Positions 32,353 through 44,622 of a stretch of 64,000 nucleotides of DNA are shown here, piece by piece; the stretch's first letter is position 1, and each line of letters opens with the position of its first letter. Location of the stretch: assembly GCA_963811165.1 (NCBI GenBank), contig CAWEQH010000004.1, positions 384,001 to 448,000 on the forward strand. Reading direction: 5' to 3'. Below the pieces are notes generated by a model. The model was not told the origin of the DNA. It saw only the letters and a list, made by a program, of their open reading frames with translations, and did not search any database. The stretch is from an uncultured Nitrospiraceae bacterium. GTDB lineage: Bacteria > Nitrospirota > Thermodesulfovibrionia > Thermodesulfovibrionales > UBA6898. The translations under genes and the position numbers were made by a program.

Positions 32353-33000
32353 ATGAAGGAAAAGAGAGCATATCCGAGATTCTCCGTCGAAGAACTGGAT
32401 CTCCGGACCTCAACTGTGGTTTCAACAGAGGTCGACATTCATGATATCAGCCCTACCGGGGTCGCCGTCAGCGGACCAAAGAGGCTCAACATCGGCCGGG
32501 AATACACCCTTAACCTTGGAGGTCAAGACGATATGCTCCCTGTCGTGGGTATTGTTAAGTGGGAGGTATTGGCGGGAAACAGAATGGCGTCGCAGGAAGA
32601 AGTTGTCCCCATCTATTTGGCTGGGATTGAATTTAAAGATGTCTTGACGGAAAAGGCGGCGCACCTCATAGATTTCATAAAGAAAATCGTCGACGTAAAG
32701 GATGAGAGGCTCAACGGCATCAGGGTTAAAATCCGCACACATGAAAAGGCGGTCCTCCGTTGCATGGAGACATACTCAGTCAAGTTGATAAGCCTCGGCG
32801 GCATGCTAATAAAGACAAAGCACGGACTGCCCGTGGAAGACGTATTCCCGATGGAACTCACCTTCCCTGACGACGACATCCCAATACATTTCAGGGGAAA
32901 GATCGCCTGCTGTCAGGAGATACAGACAGAGGGTGTCAGGCATTACAAAACAGGGATCGAGTTCATCGATATGGAGATGGGGGACAGGTCGAAGGATTGA
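32353..33000 (+). CDS. Tandem PilZ-domain protein
   Basis: EKRAYPR, DISPTG, ISLGG and TGIEF. Paralog of the N-terminal part of 26318..27568. Confidence 0.85.
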   Translation: MKEKRAYPRFSVEELDLRTSTVVSTEVDIHDISPTGVAVSGPKRLNIGREYTLNLGGQDDMLPVVGIVKWEVLAGNRMASQEEVVPIYLAGIEFKDVLTEKAAHLIDFIKKIVDVKDERLNGIRVKIRTHEKAVLRCMETYSVKLISLGGMLIKTKHGLPVEDVFPMELTFPDDDIPIHFRGKIACCQEIQTEGVRHYKTGIEFIDMEMGDRSKD

Positions 33001-33210
33001 GGCCTTTGTAGATCTTCTTTAGGGGATTTTCCTTGTGCTGCGCGGCAAGGACAATATCTAGATTCGTCTCGCAAGGCCCCTGATGAATAAGGGCCATGTT
33101 CCTGAAGGGAAAGGGCAGGATCTATGCAATCCCCGAGCTTGAGGGAAAGCTTCCCAATGTCAAGATGTCACACGAGGCCGCTGTTGGAAAGATTGAGATT
33201 GTTTTTATTA

Positions 33211-33415
33211 GAACCTATCTCAAAATCGAAATAATATCATTAGCCGGTAGTTTGTCATTCCGGCTTGTCCGATAACCCCTCCCTGCCTCCCCTTATCAGG
33301 GGAGGATCCGCCCCTTCCCCCTTGATAAGGGGGGTAGAGGGGGGTTGGATTCCCGACGCGCTTCGCTTGCGGGAATGACAGATTTAAAAACGAGACCCTA
33401 TTTTGAGATAGGTCC
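33211..33415. mobile_element. MITE-like element containing nested palindromic repeats
   Basis: TIRs GAACCTATCTCAAAAT / ATTTTGAGATAGGTCC flanked by TA. Inner TGTCATTCC...GGAATGACA and an innermost CCCCTT..AGGGG palindrome. Confidence 0.75.
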
Positions 33416-33546
33416 TAATAAGTTATAGGGTATTATGTTTACGCCATCATACATTGAAGCCCATCGGACCGGAAGGCTCGTCGACAGCATAAAAGAGTCT
33501 TACAAGATTCTTGAAAATTGCTGCCTTTGCCCCCGCAGGTGTGAAG

Positions 33547-34968
33547 GAAGTTGTCCCGTCCTTTTGTTGAAGTAGAAAGGACCCCGGTTCATTATCCTAA
33601 GCTGCGGCCTCCTTTCTGTCAATGGATTTTTGCTGCAAGGCAGCAATGAGTTTTGGGATTTCCTTATAGCCCTTCACACGCTTAAATTTCTTTTCGGCCC
33701 TTAAGAGGGAAGCTACCGCCCACCTCTGGACCATATCATCGCCCCTCCATCGTTTAACCCTGCCGGTGATCGTCCTTGTCACCGAGAAACAGGACTCTAT
33801 GGGATTGGTCGTCTGGAGAGTCTTCCTCAAGAAGCCCCGTAACTCCAAGCTTGTGTACGGTCAGCGTCTCCTCAAGTCCCTCTTTCAGCGAGGCTGCAGC
33901 GCTCGGGTTCAGCTTCTCAAGATACTTCACCGTCAATTCCAGTGACTTCTTGGCATCGTCATAATCCGCCATCTTGTATGCTGCGCTGATGCGGGCATCT
34001 ATGGCGTGCTGGTGCTCCTTGGGAAGATGATCAAGCACGTTTCTCCGCTTATGCTGCTGGCATCTCTGTACTGCCACATTTGTGCCGAACATCTTGGAAA
34101 CAGCCGATCTCAGGGCCTTCGAACCATCAAGGACAAACAGATAATCCTTCCCGGTGTTCAGCCCTCGCCTGGCTATGTCCTCAAGGAGACTCGTGCATAC
34201 AGTGGCGTTCTCCGTGGCCCCCTGCCAGAGCCCCAGGACATGCTTTCTGCCGCCCTTGTCCAGGCCCAAAGCCACGACAAGCAGATGCCCCTTGAATGCT
34301 ATGCCGTCGATAAATATCGCAACAAGGTCAAGCCCGGCAGAGGTCCCTCTCCAGAAACTCCCTCATCTGTTCCGCCGTAGCCTTCACAAAATGCCTGCTT
34401 ACACTGGATTTCTTTATGCCATAGCCTTTGACGAAGCCCTCAACCGCCTCCTCATAATTGCGGCTCGATATGCCAAGGACCATATTCTTCATTACCGAGT
34501 TCCTCATGCCCCTGGGATCCCGGAAAGCCTGAAACGTTGCAAGCGGAATCTCCTTGTTGTCCTTGCCTCTTAGACGAGGACGGTCTATCAGCACCTTCTG
34601 CTTGTCGTAATATACCGGGCTGAGATCGCTGCCCCACCAATTGGCTGCCCTTAAAGGATTCTTTGAGTCCTTAGCGCCCAGCTATCATCTCGCACTCAGA
34701 ATCCATCGCCGCCGACATGAGCAACAGCCCCGCCTCCTGCGCCAACTCCCTGATTACCTCAGGCAGGCTCTCGATAACCCCAGCCACCGGCAAGGGAAGT
34801 TCCAACAATACACTCCCATCGCCGATCTCCCTTACTTTTCCGTTTGCCTTTTTCTGCATATTCCGATATCTTTTCTTCATAGAAAGCGATCTCCTTTTAG
34901 TTTTTGATCTGGTAATCAATTCTAATCGGGGGTCGCTTCCTACTTCAACAACTTACAGGGGCATCTTC
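33547..34968 (-). mobile_element. IS256-family insertion sequence
   Basis: Imperfect IRs GAAGTTGTCCC..TTGTTGAAGTAG / GAAGATGCCCC..TTGTTGAAGTAG and a 9-bp TSD GGTGTGAAG (33538-33546, 34969-34977). Confidence 0.93.
33597..34880 (-). pseudogene. IS256 (Mutator-type) transposase split by several frameshifts
   Basis: Fragments with GISSRNY, DGSKAL, QRCQQHKRRN and TTNPIES lie in different frames. Confidence 0.9.
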
Positions 34969-36115
34969 GGTGTGAAGTCAACAGGCTGGTGGGTGAGAAA
35001 GGTATTTGTGGTACCGGACGGGCAGCCATGGTGTCGAGCTTCACTCCTCATTTTGGAGAGGAAGACCCTCTGGTGGGGACCGACGGCTCCGGGACCATCT
35101 TTATGACCAATTGCAATCTCCTCTGTGTGTTCTGTCAAAACTGGGAGATCAGCCATCTCGGCGAAGGAAGCGAAGTGGACTCTAAAACCCTCGCCGGCAT
35201 GATGCTGCAACTCCAAAGGCTGGGATGCCATAACATCAATTTCGTTACCCCAACGCACGTAGTCCCTCAGATACTCGATGCCCTGGCTTATGCCGTAGAC
35301 AGCGGTCTCAATGTACCTCTTGTCTACAATACCGGAGGCTATGATTCGGTTGGAACCCTGAAACTTCTGGAAGGGGTTTTTGATATTTATATGCCTGACT
35401 TTAAATTCTGGGACCCTGAGATGGCCCGCAGGTATTTGAAGGCCCCGGATTATCCGGATAGGGCCAAAGATGCTATAAGGGAAATGCATCGGCAGGTGGG
35501 TGATCTCGCCTTGAATGACAAAGGCATCGCGCAAAAGGGGGTCCTCCTGCGCCACCTCGTCATGCCGGAAGGTGTAGCAGGGACGAGAGAGATCATGCGT
35601 TTTATCGCCAGAGAAATCTCACCTGACACGTATGTAAATATAATGGATCAATATCATCCGTGCGGCAAAGCAAGCAAATATCCACCGCTCGACCGCTGTA
35701 TTACCCATGATGAATATGAGGAGGCTCTGAGAGCGGCCCGTGAAGAAGGCATAAGAAGATTTGATAGACGAGAAAGACGGATGAGAATTATTCCCCGGAC
35801 ATGGTGAACCATCCTAAGGTCTGTGGTTGTAGTTGCCACCACGTGACCTGACGGACAATGTCTGAAAAGATCGGCATAAGTGCACTCCTACAAAAAAACA
35901 GAATTGAAAAACTATGTTTATCGGTTGGTTCTCACAGTAACTAACACTCTCGATCACCCCGATTAGACTGAAGAGTACAAGTTGGATTGCTCAGCCAAAT
36001 ACCAAAATGCCAAGCCTGATAATCATATAAAAGGCACCTCCTGAGCATACTGGGTAGTAATTCTGACCTGATATGCTTAGGAAAAGAGACCAATCTCAAC
36101 CTATGGAGGTGCCTT

Positions 36116-37135
36116 ATGAAATTGTACGCGGGAATCGATCTTCATTCAAGCAGCAGTTATCTGGCAATTATTGACGACAAGGGAGTACGGAAGTATAGAA
36201 AAAAACTCCCCAACAACCTTGAAGGAATTCTTCACGAGATGAAGCTGTACAAGAAAGGGATGGCGGGAGTTGTGGTGGAATCGACATACAACTGGTACTG
36301 GCTAGTAGACGGATTGGAGGCAGCGGGGTATGCCGTGCATCTTGCGAATCCCTCGGCGATACAGAAATATAGCGGTCTGAAACATGCCGATGACAAACAC
36401 GATGCCTTCTGGCTTGCTGAGATGCTGAGACTGGGGATCTTGCCCGAGGGCTATATTTATCCGAAGGAGGAGCGTCCATTGCGAGACCTATTGAGGAAAC
36501 GAGGCCACCTGGTAAGACTGAGGACTTCCCTCATTATCAGTCTTCAGAACATCATCAGCAGAAACTGTGGAATCAGGCTCAACGTCAACGATGCCAAACG
36601 GCTCAAAGAGAATCGCGTGACGCCTCATCTTGAGAAAAATGAAGATCTTCGTTTGGCAGGCGCTGTCAGCAAAGAGTCAATCGATTTTCTCACTCGGCAG
36701 ATCAAGAGTATAGAGAAGGTCATCGAGCCAAAGATCGAACTCAAAGATCAGTATAGACAACTCCTCTCTATGCCGGGGATCGGGAAGGTCCTTGCCTTGA
36801 CCATTATGCTTGAGACCGGCCCGATATGCCGGTTCAAAAAAGTTGGTAACTATGTATCATACTGCAGGAAGGTGGGCTCCCAGTGGACCAGTAATGGCAA
36901 GACTAAGGGAAAAGGGAATAAGAAAAACGGCAATAAATATCTGGCATGGGCGTTTTCCGAGGCAGCGGAACTTGCTCGACGGTATGATGCTCAAGTAAGA
37001 GCTTACTATAACCGGAAACTGCAAAAGAGCAATCTCATGGTGGCCCATAGTGCCCTTGCGCACAAGCTTGCACGGGCAGCGTATTACATTATGAGAGATG
37101 AGGTGCCTTTTATGACGGAAAAGTTGTTTTCATAA
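36116..37135 (+). CDS. IS110 DEDD recombinase/transposase
   Basis: GIDLH, VESTY, DKHDA and PGIG motifs, WTSNGK catalytic-Ser region, GNKYL. Intact 339 aa. Confidence 0.95.
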   Translation: MKLYAGIDLHSSSSYLAIIDDKGVRKYRKKLPNNLEGILHEMKLYKKGMAGVVVESTYNWYWLVDGLEAAGYAVHLANPSAIQKYSGLKHADDKHDAFWLAEMLRLGILPEGYIYPKEERPLRDLLRKRGHLVRLRTSLIISLQNIISRNCGIRLNVNDAKRLKENRVTPHLEKNEDLRLAGAVSKESIDFLTRQIKSIEKVIEPKIELKDQYRQLLSMPGIGKVLALTIMLETGPICRFKKVGNYVSYCRKVGSQWTSNGKTKGKGNKKNGNKYLAWAFSEAAELARRYDAQVRAYYNRKLQKSNLMVAHSALAHKLARAAYYIMRDEVPFMTEKLFS

Positions 37136-37420
37136 TAGGATGGCTGGAACGGTGAACCTGTGCAGCGGGGTTGGAAAAACCACTAAGCCTGATTGGAAGC
37201 CGTTCCACCCGGATTGCAGCATCGTTACTGCCCATGTCGCGAGCCTAAACGGGGCTGGTTAATAACCACGAGACCTGTAATCATACACTTGGACGCGATA
37301 TGGAACCGAAGATTTTCTGGGTCGCTGATAGGCGGCAAGGGAGCTGGATATGAAGCTCATCCGGTGTCCTTAATCCTGATGGGTGACTGGTGCAGTATAC
37401 GCTGACACCAAAATGATTGA
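37136..37420 (+). ncRNA. Putative bridge/seek RNA of the IS110 element
   Basis: Stem GGAACGG/CCGTTCC encloses segments that match the flanking target; a later segment matches the element's right end. Boundaries approximate. Confidence 0.7.
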
Positions 37421-37551
37421 AAACATCGGCAAGGGTAATGGTTCGGCAACCGGCGTATGCAGTGCAAGAAAAAATCCTTGTTAAAAAGGATATGGTGAAT
37501 ATTTTGTTCTTGACACGGTGCCTTTTAATGGGTGACCCCGCCATACCTCTT

Positions 37552-38238
37552 TCATCCATATATCACTATTGAATTGGTTTCGGGATCTAGGGCAACCCTA
37601 TCCCCTCTTCTTTTTTCTCCAGAGTACAAATGATCATCCAGAGAATATGCCACTAGAGGCCTAAGACTTCTGCCCGCATATTCAAGTGTCTTGAACAGAT
37701 AACCGATAAATGAGCCCGAATAACGGTAGCGGCGGATACAGCCCTCGATACGCACCTGAATCATATCGTCAAGCCCTTCCCAGCACGATATCTTTGGGTA
37801 CTGCTCGATCCACTCATCGATAGTGAGCCTGACCAATTTAATAATTTCTCGTTTAGCAGCTACGTTTCCTTGTTGAGCGATTCTTACCAGCGCAATGCTG
37901 ATGATATCCCGTATCTGCCTATCGTGGGCATCTGCCGGAGATAGAAACGTATAAAGTTTGTCGTGGTATTTTCTCAGAATAATCTCAACCACCCTTTTGC
38001 CTCTGATGCCTGCTGGAAGTCTGCCCCTGCGTGACGTCTGCCATCTTCGCTGTAATTTGCGGTCCAAAGCACGCGTGAATTTATCCCAATCTATGCCGCC
38101 GCTTTCAGCTCTAATGTTTTTCTGAATGAAACGATAAACATCTGGAGCATGTTGTCGTATCCAGGAACTGCAAAATGTATTGGGCTTTATCGCCCTGAGA
38201 AGCCTGTTTATTGCTCTAACTGAAGAGGCAAAATCCAT
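37552..38238 (-). CDS. Hypothetical protein with a sigma-factor region-1.2/2-like segment
   Basis: ALVRIAQQGNVAAKREII...IRRY...GSFIGYL. Confidence 0.6.
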   Translation of the reverse strand: MDFASSVRAINRLLRAIKPNTFCSSWIRQHAPDVYRFIQKNIRAESGGIDWDKFTRALDRKLQRRWQTSRRGRLPAGIRGKRVVEIILRKYHDKLYTFLSPADAHDRQIRDIISIALVRIAQQGNVAAKREIIKLVRLTIDEWIEQYPKISCWEGLDDMIQVRIEGCIRRYRYSGSFIGYLFKTLEYAGRSLRPLVAYSLDDHLYSGEKRRGDRVALDPETNSIVIYG

Positions 38239-38258
38239 GAAATTAGCTGTCCGACAAT

Positions 38259-38603
38259 TTACTTCTTTCTGTGGACCTCATCATGACAAATAGTGCAAAG
38301 CGTAATTAAATTCTCTGCCGTGTTTTGCCCGGCTTTGGCGTGCTGTTGGATATGATGAAGCTCCAAATGACGCGGATCGGACGGATTCCATTCTGCATGA
38401 CTCCACCGGCATTTTGTACATCTATATTCATCTCGCCTCATTACGGCAGACCTGACAGGGTCAGGAATTCTTCTATCGTGCTCAGGGCTTTGTCTGAGGG
38501 ATTCAAGGACATACGCCCCGACTGCCAAATCTGGCCTACCGGTATTTTTTGTAATAATTGGCCAGCCGAATTCCGTTCTTAACTCACGTACGCGGCGCCC
38601 GAC
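38259..38603 (-). pseudogene. 5'-truncated HNH endonuclease
   Basis: Frame open from 38603 with no start codon: RRVRELRTEFGW...CTKC...LELHH...G.N...NLITLC..CH. Confidence 0.75.
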
Positions 38604-38849
38604 TTAGAATCCTAATTCTCCGTCCTCCATCTCCAGGGCTAAAGAAAGAGCTAAAGCATTTGATAACATAAAGCTTCCATAGTCTTTTGCAAGGCGCAAT
38701 AAATGATCCGCAGCTTTTGGGCTCCAATCTCCATGACTTGAGAGCAATACCTTAATTTTTTCAGGATCACGTATTCCTTTGTCAGTTTTTTTCATTATAA
38801 GGGAGCGATATTCATCCGTCAGTGATTTGATATACTCAGGATTTTCCAT
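38604..38849 (-). CDS. Small hypothetical protein (81 aa)
   Basis: AGGAGAGG RBS; MENPEYIKSL...EDGELGF*. Confidence 0.65.
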   Translation of the reverse strand: MENPEYIKSLTDEYRSLIMKKTDKGIRDPEKIKVLLSSHGDWSPKAADHLLRLAKDYGSFMLSNALALSLALEMEDGELGF

Positions 38850-38869
38850 GCGCCTCTCCTTTCTAAAAC

Positions 38870-39652
38870 TTATTTTTGAAAAACATTTTTGCGGTGCCAT
38901 TCCAAATGACTCTGTGACGGCAGAAATCTTCGCGGTCTGATAATTGGTGCACCTTGATAACAGCAAATCATTTCTTTAATTCTTTTTTCGCCAGACCGCA
39001 GTAGCCGAGTCGAGATCATGATCGAAAGATCGTTTGATATAGTAATAAGCCCGTTATCGAACAGTCGGTCAAATGTGGCGCTTAGACACAAGCCATTATG
39101 TGGATCTGTGCGAAATCGCTCGTCTTTGCTCCAAGGAAGAATGTGACTAGCAACAAGACATTCTCGAACACTCAAACCCGTTATACAGCAACTGTTCTCA
39201 TAACTGCTTAGTACTGTTTCTCGAAAGAAAGCTTGATGTATACGAGCCTTTGCCTTTGCTTCTTTTTCTGATGGACCCTTTGGCAAAGCAAAGTCCTCCT
39301 CTAGGTCTGCCATTACTTTCTCCTTTATTGGGAGCCTATCACGTAATCGTCTTTCTTCGAGAACCAATTGGTTCCAGTTGCTATTAAACTCATCCCATAT
39401 TTCTCGGTCTAGCTTGCTTGCATGAGCAAGTCCTGTTATATGCTGTCGTCCTAGTTCGGGATCGAACGAGCCGAAATTTCCTAACTTTCTCGCAACACTC
39501 GCAGGTGACCTGTTCAGTGCCTTGGCCAATGTTATCACCTCAGGATTATTCGCTTTCGTTTTCTTGAAAGGAATCCGACAATACAATCCAAATGCAAGAA
39601 TCAATTCGTCTCGATTCCAAAGTGAGCCATACTTCTCGGGCCGTCCTTTCAT
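38870..39652 (-). CDS. HNH endonuclease (putative restriction enzyme)
   Basis: QAFFRETVL..Y...CCITG, LVASHILPW and NGLCL...FDRLFDNGLI. Confidence 0.9.
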   Translation of the reverse strand: MKGRPEKYGSLWNRDELILAFGLYCRIPFKKTKANNPEVITLAKALNRSPASVARKLGNFGSFDPELGRQHITGLAHASKLDREIWDEFNSNWNQLVLEERRLRDRLPIKEKVMADLEEDFALPKGPSEKEAKAKARIHQAFFRETVLSSYENSCCITGLSVRECLVASHILPWSKDERFRTDPHNGLCLSATFDRLFDNGLITISNDLSIMISTRLLRSGEKRIKEMICCYQGAPIIRPRRFLPSQSHLEWHRKNVFQK

Positions 39653-39656
39653 CTAT

Positions 39657-40781
39657 TCAAACCTCCCCACGTGGACTGAAAGAATCAGGAAAACTCTGAA
39701 GTCTTGCAGCCTCCCTGTGCGTTATGGGGCGGTGTTGCCCTGGATGGAGATATCGGCCTTTTTCAGGCTTAAAAAACTCCGTCCTGATTGTAAAGGCAGG
39801 TCTGTCCCACCATAATCGGCCAAATAGATCGGTGCCGCCTGTTTTTTTTCTTATCCAGCATCCCGGCGTTAAGTCTGGAGCCCGTTTCAACAGATCAAAA
39901 CGGTTCATGCCCTCTTTCGGTATAGCCCTGTAACGCTTTACGCTGAGCGGTGTCGGAGACCTGCCGAAATGAAGGTCCAAAGGCGGCGCTTCATAGCGAA
40001 TATCGGTCCCGACAGGAGGGGGCAAATCTCCAATCAGATCTCTGACTGTCCTCCATCTTTGAGGCGTCGAAAGATAATCTTCTTTGTCGAATAAATTTAT
40101 AGTCGGCTGCCGTCCGTTTCCGTTGGGGTTGAAATGAGTTTTTCTGGGCGGAAATATAAAATTAGGATCTGATATTTTCGACCCTATTATAAAGGCTCGC
40201 CAACGAGTTTGAGGTACGCCATAATCCGCTGCACACAACTTACCATGACATATTTTATTAAATCCGAGTTTAGCAGCCATACCGACTATTTCGCCATGTT
40301 CGAAGCTGCCGAGAATTTGCGGAACATTCTCTATGACAAACACTTTTGCTCCCGACCTTTCGACTACTTCCAAAAAAGGCCTCCACAATTGATTCCGGGG
40401 ATCATCTTCCCTGTTTTTATTAAGTAAGCTGAACCCTTGGCACGGAGGGCCTCCGATGACGACATCTGCGCGCGGTATTTCTACAGAGGGCTCATTCAGC
40501 AGGTCGACAATGTCGCCTTGCACACAATGATCGCCGAAATTTTCATTATATGTATCTATGCAGTATTTATTATTGTCATTGGCCCACACCGACTTGAAAT
40601 GATGGCCGAAACTCTCGGTGAACCCGAGAGTCATTCCACCGGCACCACAGAAAAGATCAATTAATTTGAACCGTTTACTTGGTTTTGTGAGTTTGTTTTT
40701 AGCTCGGGCTTTGTAGGTAGCCTGATCTTCCTTTATGAGATGCTTCTTGATTGAACTATTACTTTTATATCTTATGGCCAT
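39657..40781 (-). CDS. DNA (cytosine-5)-methyltransferase, apparently lacking motif X
   Basis: DLFCGAGG, GGPPCQGFS, ENV, QTRWR and REAARLQSFPD, then an abrupt SPRGEV* with no GNAV motif. Confidence 0.88.
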   Translation of the reverse strand: MAIRYKSNSSIKKHLIKEDQATYKARAKNKLTKPSKRFKLIDLFCGAGGMTLGFTESFGHHFKSVWANDNNKYCIDTYNENFGDHCVQGDIVDLLNEPSVEIPRADVVIGGPPCQGFSLLNKNREDDPRNQLWRPFLEVVERSGAKVFVIENVPQILGSFEHGEIVGMAAKLGFNKICHGKLCAADYGVPQTRWRAFIIGSKISDPNFIFPPRKTHFNPNGNGRQPTINLFDKEDYLSTPQRWRTVRDLIGDLPPPVGTDIRYEAPPLDLHFGRSPTPLSVKRYRAIPKEGMNRFDLLKRAPDLTPGCWIRKKTGGTDLFGRLWWDRPAFTIRTEFFKPEKGRYLHPGQHRPITHREAARLQSFPDSFSPRGEV

Positions 40782-40890
40782 AACTCACTTGCTGTATTAT
40801 AGAATATTTTCAGTAAGACAGGTGAACGGAGATGCGCTTTAAGGACGGGAAGATTACAACGTCCTTGACGGAATTCCGGGGTGCTTGTAA

Positions 40891-41697
40891 TCAGGTGGCC
40901 CTTGGATCAAGATATGCCGCCTTCCTCCGAGAATCTGCATTCTTTGTATGCGCCTTTTTCCACCTGAAGTATCTCTGTACCTCGGCAGCGCACGGATGAG
41001 ATGGAAGTGAACATACACGCTCCCATGTGGTCTGAAGAAATCTGATCCCAGGCGGAACAGGATTTGCGAATGCGTCAGAGAAGAGACTCAGGCCGACAAC
41101 TGCTCTGACCGAAGCGGCCGGGAAAAGACGCTGCGAGTAATTCTTCAGAAACTCCCCTCGTAACTGAATCTGATCCTTGTCTTTCTGTTTCCCTTGTGAT
41201 CTCCCAACGCCGGATCGCCATTTTGCCTCGTCAAGAACAACAGCATTCCGGGTTATAATCCCAAAGTCGATCTCGGGTCCTCCTACGCTTAGAGTGTCAG
41301 GGTGAGGAATTCTTCGCCAGAGAATGACCTCGGCGTGATCGGCAGATGCACTTGGAAGGTTCAGCAGTCGAAAGAGATCGGTAAGCCAGCTTTTCAATAT
41401 ATCTCGCTGAGCCCGAGCGGCAGTGCCAAACACCGACCAGGTGATGGCGTCTTCACTGTGAAGAGACTGAAGGTCACAATAGTATCCAAGGCCTGATTCG
41501 CAGATTGCTCGCTGGTTATCGTCAAAGGCATGAACCTGTCGACTCTGATAAAGTTTTTGAACCACCTCAGGCGCGGGCCATGGATCACAACCCGTCCGAA
41601 TTAGGTTGTCGAACGGGTGCGCCGCTACACAAACGCCGCCTTTGCTATGCGCAAATGTCATTTTTTTGCCGTTCCAATCCTTCATTATTTGAATCAT
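40891..41697 (-). CDS. Hypothetical protein with a PD-(D/E)xK nuclease-like motif
   Basis: SEDAITWSVF and PEID...DEAKW...DQ. Confidence 0.6.
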   Translation of the reverse strand: MIQIMKDWNGKKMTFAHSKGGVCVAAHPFDNLIRTGCDPWPAPEVVQKLYQSRQVHAFDDNQRAICESGLGYYCDLQSLHSEDAITWSVFGTAARAQRDILKSWLTDLFRLLNLPSASADHAEVILWRRIPHPDTLSVGGPEIDFGIITRNAVVLDEAKWRSGVGRSQGKQKDKDQIQLRGEFLKNYSQRLFPAASVRAVVGLSLFSDAFANPVPPGIRFLQTTWERVCSLPSHPCAAEVQRYFRWKKAHTKNADSRRKAAYLDPRAT

Positions 41698-41994
41698 TAT
41701 CTTAAACGATTATAGCAAACTCCGGTGTGAGGATTTCAGTTGGTAATCAAAGTCCTTCAGAGAACGACATAAGTGCGGAGTATCAGGTGCACTTTTTATT
41801 GTCCAAGGTCTTCGGGGTTTATCCACGAGGAGATGTTATTACGATATCGAATCACAAGTCGGGCAATGACGAAAGCGGATATTACTTTTGCATCTTTCAA
41901 TACTACCTGGATTCCGATTGCCAACTGCCGGAATGACGGAGGAAAAGGGGGAGGGGAGAGCGTGGGGAAAGCCTGGCGCAGGCTTGAATTGGTG

Positions 41995-44622
41995 TCAAGG
42001 TCTCCTCACATAGAGTTTTCTCAGTTCTTCCGCCAGCAGCAATACTATGCTAAACGGTATCAGGATCAGCCACACACTTAAGTTTACAGGCGCCGTTCCG
42101 AAAATCCTGTTTCCGATCGGACTATAAATGATAACGGCCGACAGCAATAGCTCAAAGACCACTCCGACAACGAGTAATTTGTTCGACAGGAAGCCGAGAC
42201 TGAAGATAGAGTCTTTAAAAGAGCGACAGGCGAATACCGTGCCGACCTGTAGTATCACGATCCCCAGGAATGTTGCTGTCGTTGCCCGGCGGGAAAGCAG
42301 ATCATCGATGGGCAAATCCGTTCCCCATTTCCAGCCGCCATTATAAAGGACATAGAAATACCCGAACAAGACACCGATTGTGCTTATGAGACCGATAAAA
42401 ATATATCCCCTGAAGAGTACCGAACGGTCTATAAGTCCTTTTTCGAGCGGCCTTGGGGGTCTCTTCATAATTCCTGCTTCAGGTGTTTCCATACCCAGGG
42501 CAAGGGCGGGGACGGTCTCGGTGCCGAGGTCTATGGCGAGGATCTGCATCACTGTGAGCGGCAGCGGTATCTTGATAAGCGCAAACAGGATATACGGGAT
42601 CGCCTCCGGCGTCCCATGCGCAAAGATGTAGGTGATGAATTTTCTGATGTTCTCAAATATCGCCCTGCCTTCCTCCACCGCATTTACAATTGTGGCGAAA
42701 TTATCATCGAGCAGGACCACATCTGCCGCTTCCTTTGCAACATCCGTCCCGCTCTTCCCCATGGCAATTCCGATGTCCGCCTTTTTAAGTGCGGGTGCGT
42801 CATTCACCCCATCACCCGTTACCGCAACCCTTTCCCCCTCGTCTTTAAGTATTGACACCACCCTCATCTTATGTCTGGGTGTCATCCTTGCAAAGATTAT
42901 CTCCTTAGATGCGATAGCTTCTCTCAGCGCACTGTCTTTTATTCCATCCATTGAATATCCTTCAATAACGACGGGATCGCCTTCGACAAGTCCTATCTGT
43001 CTTGCAACGGCTGTAGCCGTCTTGCTCGCATCCCCGGTAATCATAATTATCCTGATGCCTGACTCATGACATTTTCTTATGGCCTCCGGTACATCGGGAC
43101 GCGGAGGATCTTCAAGCCCTATTAGCCCGACTAATGTAAGATCGGACTCGACCGATGACTCCAGGGCGGGCCTGTCAATAACAACTTTCTCTTTGTCGGA
43201 AAGAGCAAATGCCATCACTCTCAGTCCCTCATCCATCATCGAATGATATGCCCGCGTCAATAATTCCTTATATTCTTCATTCAATGCCTTAACACCGTTA
43301 TCTAGTATTGTGTTACACAGCGGTAAAACAGTTTCCAGGGCGCCCTTTGTCAATACCACAGTCTTGCCGTCGAGCACATTTAGTGTGGTCATTCTCTTTC
43401 TTTCAGAATCGAAAGGTATCTCAAATATTCTTTCTGATTGGATATCACCGGATGTCTCCCTGACCTTCCTCAAAATCGCAACTTCCGTAGGGTCTCCTCT
43501 GTATTTCCCATCCTCATAAACGGCATTGTTACAAAGATAAGCAATCTTCATCAGATTGCCGGAAGTAGACTGCCGGCCATCAAATGTCCACACCTTCTCG
43601 ACCTCCATGCTGTTCTGCGTAAGCGTCCCTGTTTTGTCGGTGCAGATCACCGTAACAGAACCGAGTGTCTCCACAGAGGTGAGATTTTTGATGAGCGCTT
43701 TTTTCTTGGCCATCCTTTGGCTTCCCATCGCAAGGGAGAGGGTCACGGTAGGGAGGAGTCCTTCGGGCACATTGGCAATGGTAATACCGATGGCAAAAAG
43801 CAGGTTATGCCAGAAGCTTCTGCCGATTAGAGTTCCGATTGCCAGAAAGAATATGCCCGTGGTGATTGCGATCAGTGCGATTATCCTCGTCACCTTTATT
43901 ATCTCTTTTTGGAGAGGGCTCAGCCCCGGCTCAACGGCGCTCGTCAAGTGTGCGATCCTGCCGAACTCGGTGGACATGCCGGTTGCAAAGGCCACGGCCT
44001 TGCCGGAACCGCTCAGAACAAGTGTGCCGGCAAAGATTATGTTGGCACTTTCGAGATATTCCCCGTCGAACGGCGCAGCACTTCTCGGTTTCGACTCAGA
44101 CTCGCCGGTCAATGGGGCATTATTTACCATAAGGCGGTTTTCATCTATAAGCCTCGAGTCAGCAGGGACCTTGTCCCCCTCGACCAGAAGGATCACATCG
44201 CCGGGGACAACGTCCCTTGCCGGGATTTCCCTCGTTGCCCCGTCTCGCACAACTTTAACATTGAAGGGGAGGAGTTTTTTGAGCGCTTCCACCGCCTTTT
44301 CCGCGCGGAATTCCTGTACAAACGTGAAGATGGCGTTGATGACGATGACCCCAATGATTGCTATCCCGAGCGAAAGCATGCCTTCTCCGGGACGAAGATA
44401 TTCGGATATGAAAGAAAGGAAAGCTGAAACCCACAAAAGGATGGCAAGGAAATGTGTAAACTGGGAGACTAATCTTAGAAAGAGAGACTTCTTCCTTACC
44501 TCTTTAATCTCATTCGGACCATATTCATGGAGACGCCTTTGGGCATCCGCTTCTGAAAGACCTCTCTCAGAAGTTACGAGGCTCCGGAGGACTTCCTCTC
44601 GTGAGAGATTGTGAATCTTCAT
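41995..44622 (-). CDS. Cation-transporting P-type ATPase (type II)
   Basis: LTGES, PEGL, DKTGTLT, KGA, DPPR, MITGD and TGDGVND motifs. Confidence 0.97.
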   Translation of the reverse strand: MKIHNLSREEVLRSLVTSERGLSEADAQRRLHEYGPNEIKEVRKKSLFLRLVSQFTHFLAILLWVSAFLSFISEYLRPGEGMLSLGIAIIGVIVINAIFTFVQEFRAEKAVEALKKLLPFNVKVVRDGATREIPARDVVPGDVILLVEGDKVPADSRLIDENRLMVNNAPLTGESESKPRSAAPFDGEYLESANIIFAGTLVLSGSGKAVAFATGMSTEFGRIAHLTSAVEPGLSPLQKEIIKVTRIIALIAITTGIFFLAIGTLIGRSFWHNLLFAIGITIANVPEGLLPTVTLSLAMGSQRMAKKKALIKNLTSVETLGSVTVICTDKTGTLTQNSMEVEKVWTFDGRQSTSGNLMKIAYLCNNAVYEDGKYRGDPTEVAILRKVRETSGDIQSERIFEIPFDSERKRMTTLNVLDGKTVVLTKGALETVLPLCNTILDNGVKALNEEYKELLTRAYHSMMDEGLRVMAFALSDKEKVVIDRPALESSVESDLTLVGLIGLEDPPRPDVPEAIRKCHESGIRIIMITGDASKTATAVARQIGLVEGDPVVIEGYSMDGIKDSALREAIASKEIIFARMTPRHKMRVVSILKDEGERVAVTGDGVNDAPALKKADIGIAMGKSGTDVAKEAADVVLLDDNFATIVNAVEEGRAIFENIRKFITYIFAHGTPEAIPYILFALIKIPLPLTVMQILAIDLGTETVPALALGMETPEAGIMKRPPRPLEKGLIDRSVLFRGYIFIGLISTIGVLFGYFYVLYNGGWKWGTDLPIDDLLSRRATTATFLGIVILQVGTVFACRSFKDSIFSLGFLSNKLLVVGVVFELLLSAVIIYSPIGNRIFGTAPVNLSVWLILIPFSIVLLLAEELRKLYVRRP

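Follow-up and report, generated by a model that had tools for sequence, protein, structure and literature searches.

The window, that is, the whole stretch of 64,000 nucleotides analysed here, contains an intact 1.5-kb insertion sequence of the IS1111 group, whose right end encodes a predicted three-loop bridge RNA (Table 1). We set the boundaries of the element (its TG cores and ends) by comparison with homologues. The recombinase combines a DEDD RuvC-like domain with a Tnp domain carrying the catalytic serine, as in the IS110 family (Pfam DEDD_Tnp_IS110, PF01548, E 3e-16; Transposase_20, PF02371, E 3e-13), and its residues D8, E55, D93, D96 and S259 were 97–99% conserved among 155 homologues. 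The 11-bp subterminal inverted repeats and the short left end (97 nt) next to a long, RNA-bearing right end (399 nt) are those of an IS1111 element. In addition, the top-strand target match (the first guide of loop 1) lies 5' of the bottom-strand match (the second guide), the order described for IS1111 in the sections available of PMC11187229.

Table 1. The element, its flanks and its predicted RNA, in window coordinates
Feature	Position	Strand	Basis
Left target arm AAGCC with core TG (core 36017-36018)	36012-36018	+	Equals loop 1 second guide; same boundary in homologues
Left end: donor arm and subterminal inverted repeat (36028-36038)	36019-36038	+	Kept in homologues, where the DNA upstream differs
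IS110-family recombinase, 339 aa, intact (D8, E55, D93, D96, S259)	36116-37135	+	Pfam
Loop 1, target-binding: first guide 37165-37171, second guide 37185-37191, handshake AT 37192-37193	37141-37210	+	Flank covariation
5' strand of predicted long-range stem (partner 37428-37441)	37220-37232	+	MFE fold; pairing in homologues
Loop 2, target-type: first guide 37247-37255, hairpin 37256-37268, second guide 37269-37277	37231-37304	+	Profile, covariation
Loop 3, donor-binding multi-loop: first guide 37308-37317, second guide 37379-37385, handshake AC 37386-37387	37300-37441	+	End match
Right end: TTGACA (37510-37515), subterminal inverted repeat (37517-37527), donor arm, core TG (37533-37534)	37510-37534	+	Same layout in homologues
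Right target arm ACCCCGCC	37535-37542	+	Complementary over 7 nt to loop 1 first guide

Joining the element ends in silico placed TTGACA 18 bp ahead of GATAAT, so that the left end would supply the −10 box of a circle promoter. A promoter scan of the linear element gave 3 weak sites, with 2.5 expected. Four sequencing runs (85% likeness) covered the element only in pieces, and there was no end-to-end joint among those pieces. No further copy of the element was present in the 3.66-Mb source genome, where the recombinase is single-copy; viral contigs contained no relative, and Rfam returned nothing at E ≤ 1 across window positions 33000-42000. As the source genome has no sister copies, we examined insertion-site classes in relatives. 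We retrieved 159 homologous loci (160 with the window), the named ones mostly from Nitrospirota and deltaproteobacterial genomes, and a search of 10 host genomes for extra copies gained few new sites.

An extra copy of the right subterminal repeat motif lies within the last codons of the recombinase gene (37102-37111). An internal inverted repeat in the left end (36031-36116), present in many homologues, has its 3' arm over the ribosome-binding site and could damp recombinase translation. Upstream of the element, positions 35902-35981 are 81% identical over 80 nt to another place in the source genome (C5:7670-7749). Two HNH-domain genes lie to the right of the element on the minus strand (37552-40781), together with a further gene that, by its motif, looks like a DNA cytosine methyltransferase. 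Pieces of another transposase, presumably IS256-like, are found at 33597-34919 on the minus strand, left of a radical SAM gene. The idea that the target is one arm of an inverted repeat was set aside; an inverted copy stands at most 400 nt away in 13 of 105 loci (a count with no computed null). The insertion site may be a REP-type repeat.

Several relatives depart from this plan. The right end is tandemly duplicated, by 14–15 bp and in up to three copies, in L041, L042, L058, L147, L150, L203, L204 and L241; the clade of L041 seemingly has a shifted core register. A GC-rich insert of 200–340 nt separates gene and RNA in one deltaproteobacterial sub-clade (L002-L006, L010, L011, L014, L026, L068). 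After the stop codon of L097, the 5' half of loop 1 is fused to the 3' half of loop 2, and at the right end of L209 most of the donor loop is missing; both look like damaged copies. L068 ends at the second guide of its own donor loop, with target-like DNA directly after, as if the donor copy inside the RNA gene had been used as the element end.

Three loops of one scaffold in the predicted RNA

The structured RNA region of this element spans about 300 nt. To assign its loops we compared guide sequences with insertion sites and element ends across relatives. In 140 loci (about 97 effective), flank positions −1 to −5 covaried most strongly with the guide columns of loop 1 (z 10.8–14.4), and loop 1 was compatible with the flank in 118–136 of 136 guide sets per position, as for the target loop of a bridge RNA; its stem also shows covariation. 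In 137 of 142 guide sets the loop 1 handshake is identical to the first two donor bases; three of these agreements are AA/AA and one is AG/AG. The second guide of loop 3 corresponds to the right-end donor arm and changes along with the right end in L143, L198 and L208; the first donor guide carries a constant mismatch at +2. The handshake of loop 3 covaries with right-flank position +1 (z 9.1) and equals the start of the loop 1 right target (+1 and +2) in 138 of 141 guide sets, a count that omits loci lacking the motif and nine loci, all from one clade, whose core register differs. Each handshake thus covaries with the opposite substrate, as in known bridge RNAs. By these comparisons, loop 1 is the target loop and loop 3 the donor loop, which makes loop 2 an additional, third loop distinct from the donor loop.

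That a second loop repeats the layout of the first was the starting observation of an earlier note on this DNA. The loop is indeed present at 37241-37295, with its loop 1 counterpart at 37156-37200. A pattern for the shared layout occurs at exactly these two places in the 3.66-Mb genome and a loose scaffold-only pattern at 4, although both were composed after the loops had been seen. With a covariance model of loop 1 built from 45 homologues, the window excluded, loop 2 was the best non-self match in the 64 kb, at only 15.6 bits (E 0.25). The reverse search with a loop 2 model matched loop 1 at E 1.8 in the window and at E 0.0009–0.007 in three relatives. On the window alone the likeness of the two loops is therefore modest, and it is the family comparison that settles it.

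We built a profile that runs from loop 1 through loop 2 into the first part of the donor loop, with 85 distinct loci picked by pattern as seeds. The full two-loop match was present in 144 of 160 loci, the window among them; of the 147 loci with at least 330 nt downstream, the window again included, 142 had it, and the other five comprise four interrupted elements and the L097 fusion. The profile thus found loop 2 across the family, and its absence from homologues, which the earlier note had named as a reason to discard its reading, does not apply. Exactly one target and one donor loop, as in a two-loop bridge RNA, does not describe these 142 loci, which all have the third loop. Among 29 diverse loci selected by hand, pairing in the basal stem of loop 2 reached 97.8%; both sides had changed in 6 of its 8 pairs, the remaining 2 were invariant, and the whole structure was 94% paired, as against 26–43% when partners were slid. 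The predicted fold of loop 2 has a z of −3.9. Its position −1 is C37275, and a 12-nt linker (37278-37289) stands where the handshake would be. Eight pairs examined in the predicted long-range stem were paired in 88–119 of 126 homologues, and this stem, which has moderate support, may enclose loop 2 together with the donor loop as a single domain.

The loop 2 model also matched relatives at 46–58% protein identity (L205, L206, L208, L227, L244, L245, L248). One of these, the plasmid relative L244 (48% identical), is annotated as ISGsu4 family; it shares the three-loop layout with four other plasmid relatives at 47–49%, among which L245 and L248 matched the model and L243 and L246 did not, the loop being visible there by eye. 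Three loops are also visible, by eye only, in a sister clade that comprises L247 (34% identity) and its seven relatives L249-L255; the covariance models had no match there or in the 30% outgroups L256-L258. In this clade loop 1 contains a long variable hairpin, and loop 2 has no long linker and a non-matching handshake. We considered whether L097 proves loop 2 dispensable and rejected this, because the fusion deprives both basal stems of their partners.

Loop 2 and the target at the crossover

The earlier note had proposed that the RNA binds targets with two loops that recognise variants of a repeat, and had suggested checking whether some insertion sites match loop 2. We scored sites over five bases on each side, allowing G-U wobble and taking the better of two registers. 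Of 127 distinct insertion sites, 112 fitted loop 1 better, 11 tied and 4 fitted loop 2 better, 3 of them by one base; a foreign loop 2 won 1.1 ± 0.8 sites. The window's own site scored 10 with loop 1 and 8 with loop 2. In one genome (G006), an element with six copies whose loops differ at −2 carries the base of loop 2 at 0 of 6 sites. Over 136 guide sets, where the two loops differ, the flank fitted loop 1 only versus loop 2 only at 5:0, 18:1, 47:3, 20:3 and 21:8 (−1 to −5). The site of L052 scores 10/10 for loop 2 and 8/10 for loop 1, and loop 2 is also the better fit to the right flank of L252, so occasional use of loop 2 for insertion sites is possible. The comparison does not support loop 2 as a second guide with an independent address, and beside the core it changes together with loop 1. 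What stands of the multi-guide proposal is that the RNA has three loops and that loop 2 is a conserved paralogue of the target loop; two loops choosing two repeat variants is the part that is not supported.

To follow the co-variation of the loops we used 155 distinct guide sets (from 163 after locus additions; 49 new loci examined, 41 parsed). At position −1, next to the core, loop 2 carries the same base as loop 1 in 143 of 155 sets, as compared with 71.9 ± 5.8 expected from shuffling; the agreement includes G/G four times and A/A three times, and all 12 exceptions are transitions. At −2 the loops agree in 93 of 155 sets (54.5 expected), and at −3, −4 and −5 in 76, 108 and 112 (65, 93 and 94 expected). 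We repeated the comparison on a FastTree tree of recombinase genes, counting independent pairs that differ in loop 1. Among 37 such pairs at −1, loop 2 followed in 31, opposed in none, was unchanged in 5 and did otherwise in 1; measured against the actual flank, it followed rather than opposed at 27:0 of 35. At −2 the ratio was 15:2 of 47 pairs, and at −3, −4 and −5 there was no clear signal (2:1 of 38, 5:1 of 36 and 2:0 of 26); cross-position controls gave 4:7 and 8:4. Mutual information with flank position −1 was high for the columns of both loop 1 (z 12.8) and loop 2 (z 9.6). In L198, where the core is AG, all three loops read AG.

On the right side, 27 sets were retargeted at +1/+2, and the first guide of loop 2 fitted +1 in 20 of them (6.2 expected); on the tree this +1 tracking was non-significant (3:0 of 12 pairs, p 0.25), and at +2 and +3 loop 2 was at chance level in the retargeted sets. 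In L057 and L061 the first guide of loop 2 matches the right flank at +3 to +7 and not at +1 to +5; the two loci differ in a way that wobble pairing would tolerate, and the register is possibly shifted.

Two other sources of the −1 tracking were considered and rejected. Pairing within the RNA finds no complementary column for the −1 base of loop 2 in the aligned RNA; that alignment takes in neither the 5' end nor the variable insert nor the coding region. As for a recombinase residue, the best column changed with the C/T switch in 6 of 30 pairs. Loop 1 is about equally variable at all five positions (40, 53, 42, 40 and 31 changes at −1 to −5), with 44 joint loop 1/loop 2 changes at −1, whereas the distal guide positions of loop 2 stay near a fixed consensus (23, 20 and 17 changes versus 42, 40 and 31 in loop 1). 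Because loop 2 follows only the innermost of five about equally variable positions, neutral gene conversion is disfavoured. Unusual distal bases common to both loops in L044, L027, L203 and L238 are hints of copying between the loops now and then.

Taken from aligned sequences, these data show the second guide of loop 2 following the target strongly at −1, loosely at −2 and at the core, and not at −3 to −5. Since a base of its guides tracks the target across the tree, loop 2 is more than a scaffold, which had been named as a reason to discard it. The simplest reading is that loop 2 would pair with target-side DNA across the core, and we regard pairing with target-side DNA as very probable. In IS621, the available text of PMC11208158 describes a wild-type second guide that pairs with the core and 2 nt only and a cut that adjoins the core; by this mapping, the base at position −1 would sit at the scissile bond.

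Possible roles of a loop without a handshake

Where loop 1 has its 2-nt handshake, the TG of loop 2 is followed by a variable, A/C-rich linker of 10–13 nt in 133 of 155 guide sets. AT follows this TG in 5 of 155 sets and AC, the excision handshake, in only 8. By eye, all 8 sister-clade loci have AT in loop 1 and AA, TA or AG in loop 2. According to the parts of the cited reports available, handshake pairing in IS621 drives insertion and suppresses excision (PMC13626964), circle formation by ISEc11 needs target bases on both flanks (PMC11187229), and an RNA with only the target loop moves an old junction to a new target (10.1101/2025.10.25.684509).

We propose a model in which entry is the work of loop 1 and exit that of loop 2. 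During entry, loop 1 would pair with the insertion site and loop 3 with the element's own ends. Loop 2 may be occupied by its own recombinase dimer, because its scaffold bases are invariant. At an occupied site, the loop 1 handshake would already be paired with the donor end, locking the junction as in IS621. Loop 2, which has no handshake and would need few bases of the old flanks, could hold these without locking the junction, given that the handshake favours insertion in IS621 and that ISEc11 circles need both flanks. Its partner would then be loop 3 if the element leaves by excision or copy-out, or loop 1 if it moves by direct transfer. We put this exit role, the release of the element from existing flanks, at an even chance, on the comparisons above and on analogy with IS621 and ISEc11. 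Somewhat more tentatively, a broad IS1111 clade might divide the recombination cycle between two target-type loops, one strict and handshake-bearing for entry, the other relaxed, handshake-less and acting with the donor loop for exit. Against an exit role stand the lack of a positive excision handshake in loop 2, the four sites that fit loop 2 better and the moderate support for the long-range stem. In the sections available of 10.64898/2026.08.31.748434, rejoining of IS621 donor ends does not require target pairing, so a helper loop is not obviously needed.

Covariation is blind to whether a site is occupied or empty, and a role in insertion therefore fits the tracking equally well. Loop 2 could be a relaxed back-up or helper that pairs near the core with the same empty target, serving capture, off-consensus sites or the passage of the element through retargeting of loop 1. 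Core-proximal tracking is just as expected here, an element's own loop 2 fits its sites better than a foreign one (mean 7.76 versus 6.83 ± 0.11 of 10), and 4 of 127 sites fit it better with 1.1 ± 0.8 expected. However, the handshake that promotes insertion is absent from loop 2 (AT in 5 of 155), and where the loops differ the flanks side with loop 1 more often at every position, which leaves this a less probable, though serious, alternative. We consider it unlikely that loop 2 serves as a second, independent target loop that recognises a repeat variant of its own, in a multi-guide RNA. Its full target-loop scaffold, its guides spelling a similar site and the better fit of L052 and L252 would suit that role, but loop 1 is better at 112 of 127 sites and none of the six G006 copies shows the −2 base of loop 2. 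Such a loop would also call for a handshake of its own, whereas AT follows its core so rarely and the donor-loop handshake equals the loop 1 target in 138 of 141 sets. Nor should an independent address shift in step with loop 1 at −1.

Quite improbable, too, is that loop 2 is a structural leftover of duplication, a scaffold or recombinase sponge that gene conversion now and then keeps similar to loop 1. Distal guides that stay near consensus and change about half as often as those of loop 1 are in keeping with it, as are the unusual distal bases common to both loops in a few loci (L044, L027). Yet loop 2 follows only −1 and partly −2 despite similar rates of change in loop 1, conversion between flanking anchors would, if neutral, copy every position alike, and no recombinase column tracks the C/T switch at −1 (best 6 of 30 pairs). 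That loop 2 is the donor-binding loop is largely refuted and now very hard to credit. The first 8 nt of its linker (37278-37285) do equal the left end at 36020-36027, offset by one from the core, but this match is not conserved in homologues and is probably chance. Moreover, the donor loop, which changes with the donor in L143, L198 and L208, is a separate one, and the −1 base of loop 2 follows the variable target and not the near-invariant G of the donor.

Set beside known systems, as far as the cited texts describe them, the element has the familiar parts in an unfamiliar arrangement. Like IS621, it has a DEDD and Tnp-serine recombinase, a 2-bp core, target and donor loops of one scaffold and handshake dinucleotides that covary with the opposite substrate (Durrant 2024, PMC11208160; Hiraizumi 2024, PMC11208158; PMC13626964). 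Donor guides inside a multi-loop, as here, are reported for many IS1111 orthologues (PMC11208160). IS621 has two loops upstream of the gene and a single target loop for both insertion and excision (PMC11208160, PMC11208158, PMC13626964), in contrast to three loops downstream of the gene, the middle one without a handshake. The seekRNA elements ISEc11, ISKpn4, ISPa11 and ISPst6 share the non-coding region downstream of the transposase, the subterminal inverted repeats and the top-strand match 5' of the bottom-strand match (Siddiquee et al. 2024, PMC11187229), and loop 1 (70 nt) resembles their short seekRNA (82–96 nt). They differ, by description, in having one pair of target matches per RNA (PMC11187229); their long RNAs measure 148–172 nt (PMC13604230), as compared with about 300 nt including a second target-type loop here. 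In direct transfer by CazIS110-1, an additional target-type loop helps to move an existing junction, as loop 2 might here, but there it is a truncated copy of the same RNA and here a separately encoded, diverged paralogue (10.1101/2025.10.25.684509).

For the ISGsu4-like relatives, our literature search, within the texts it reached, found no description of the RNA, and the ISGsu4 protein cluster differs from the ISCARN28 and ISAzs32 clusters in the portion seen of the table of Durrant 2024 (PMC11208160). A third or duplicated loop is not stated in the text available of the IS110/IS1111 papers searched, including Durrant 2024 (journal and preprint versions) and the Perry 2025 preprint, where one that was only drawn could escape; nor is it stated in the parts available of a 2026 review (PMC13604230) and a 2026 non-coding atlas preprint. 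On the evidence found, the bridge-RNA system is already known, and what is new about this variant is its conserved layout of three loops, of which the middle one is core-only and has no handshake.

Bridge RNAs are described as two-loop guides, and in the available text of PMC13626964 their handshake biases the reaction to insertion and against excision. How these elements exit efficiently is disputed between cut-out, copy-out, direct transfer and donor-donor routes, and a conserved loop that reads only the crossover and has no handshake makes the question directly testable by single-base changes. If loop 2 is a helper for insertion, it would be a source of off-target events and a retargeting route for these elements. 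If the proposed exit role is true, loop 2 would be a natural RNA-encoded excisionase and a module for programmable excision, and direction would be set by which loop is in use. For design rules, the clade provides 155 natural guide sets.
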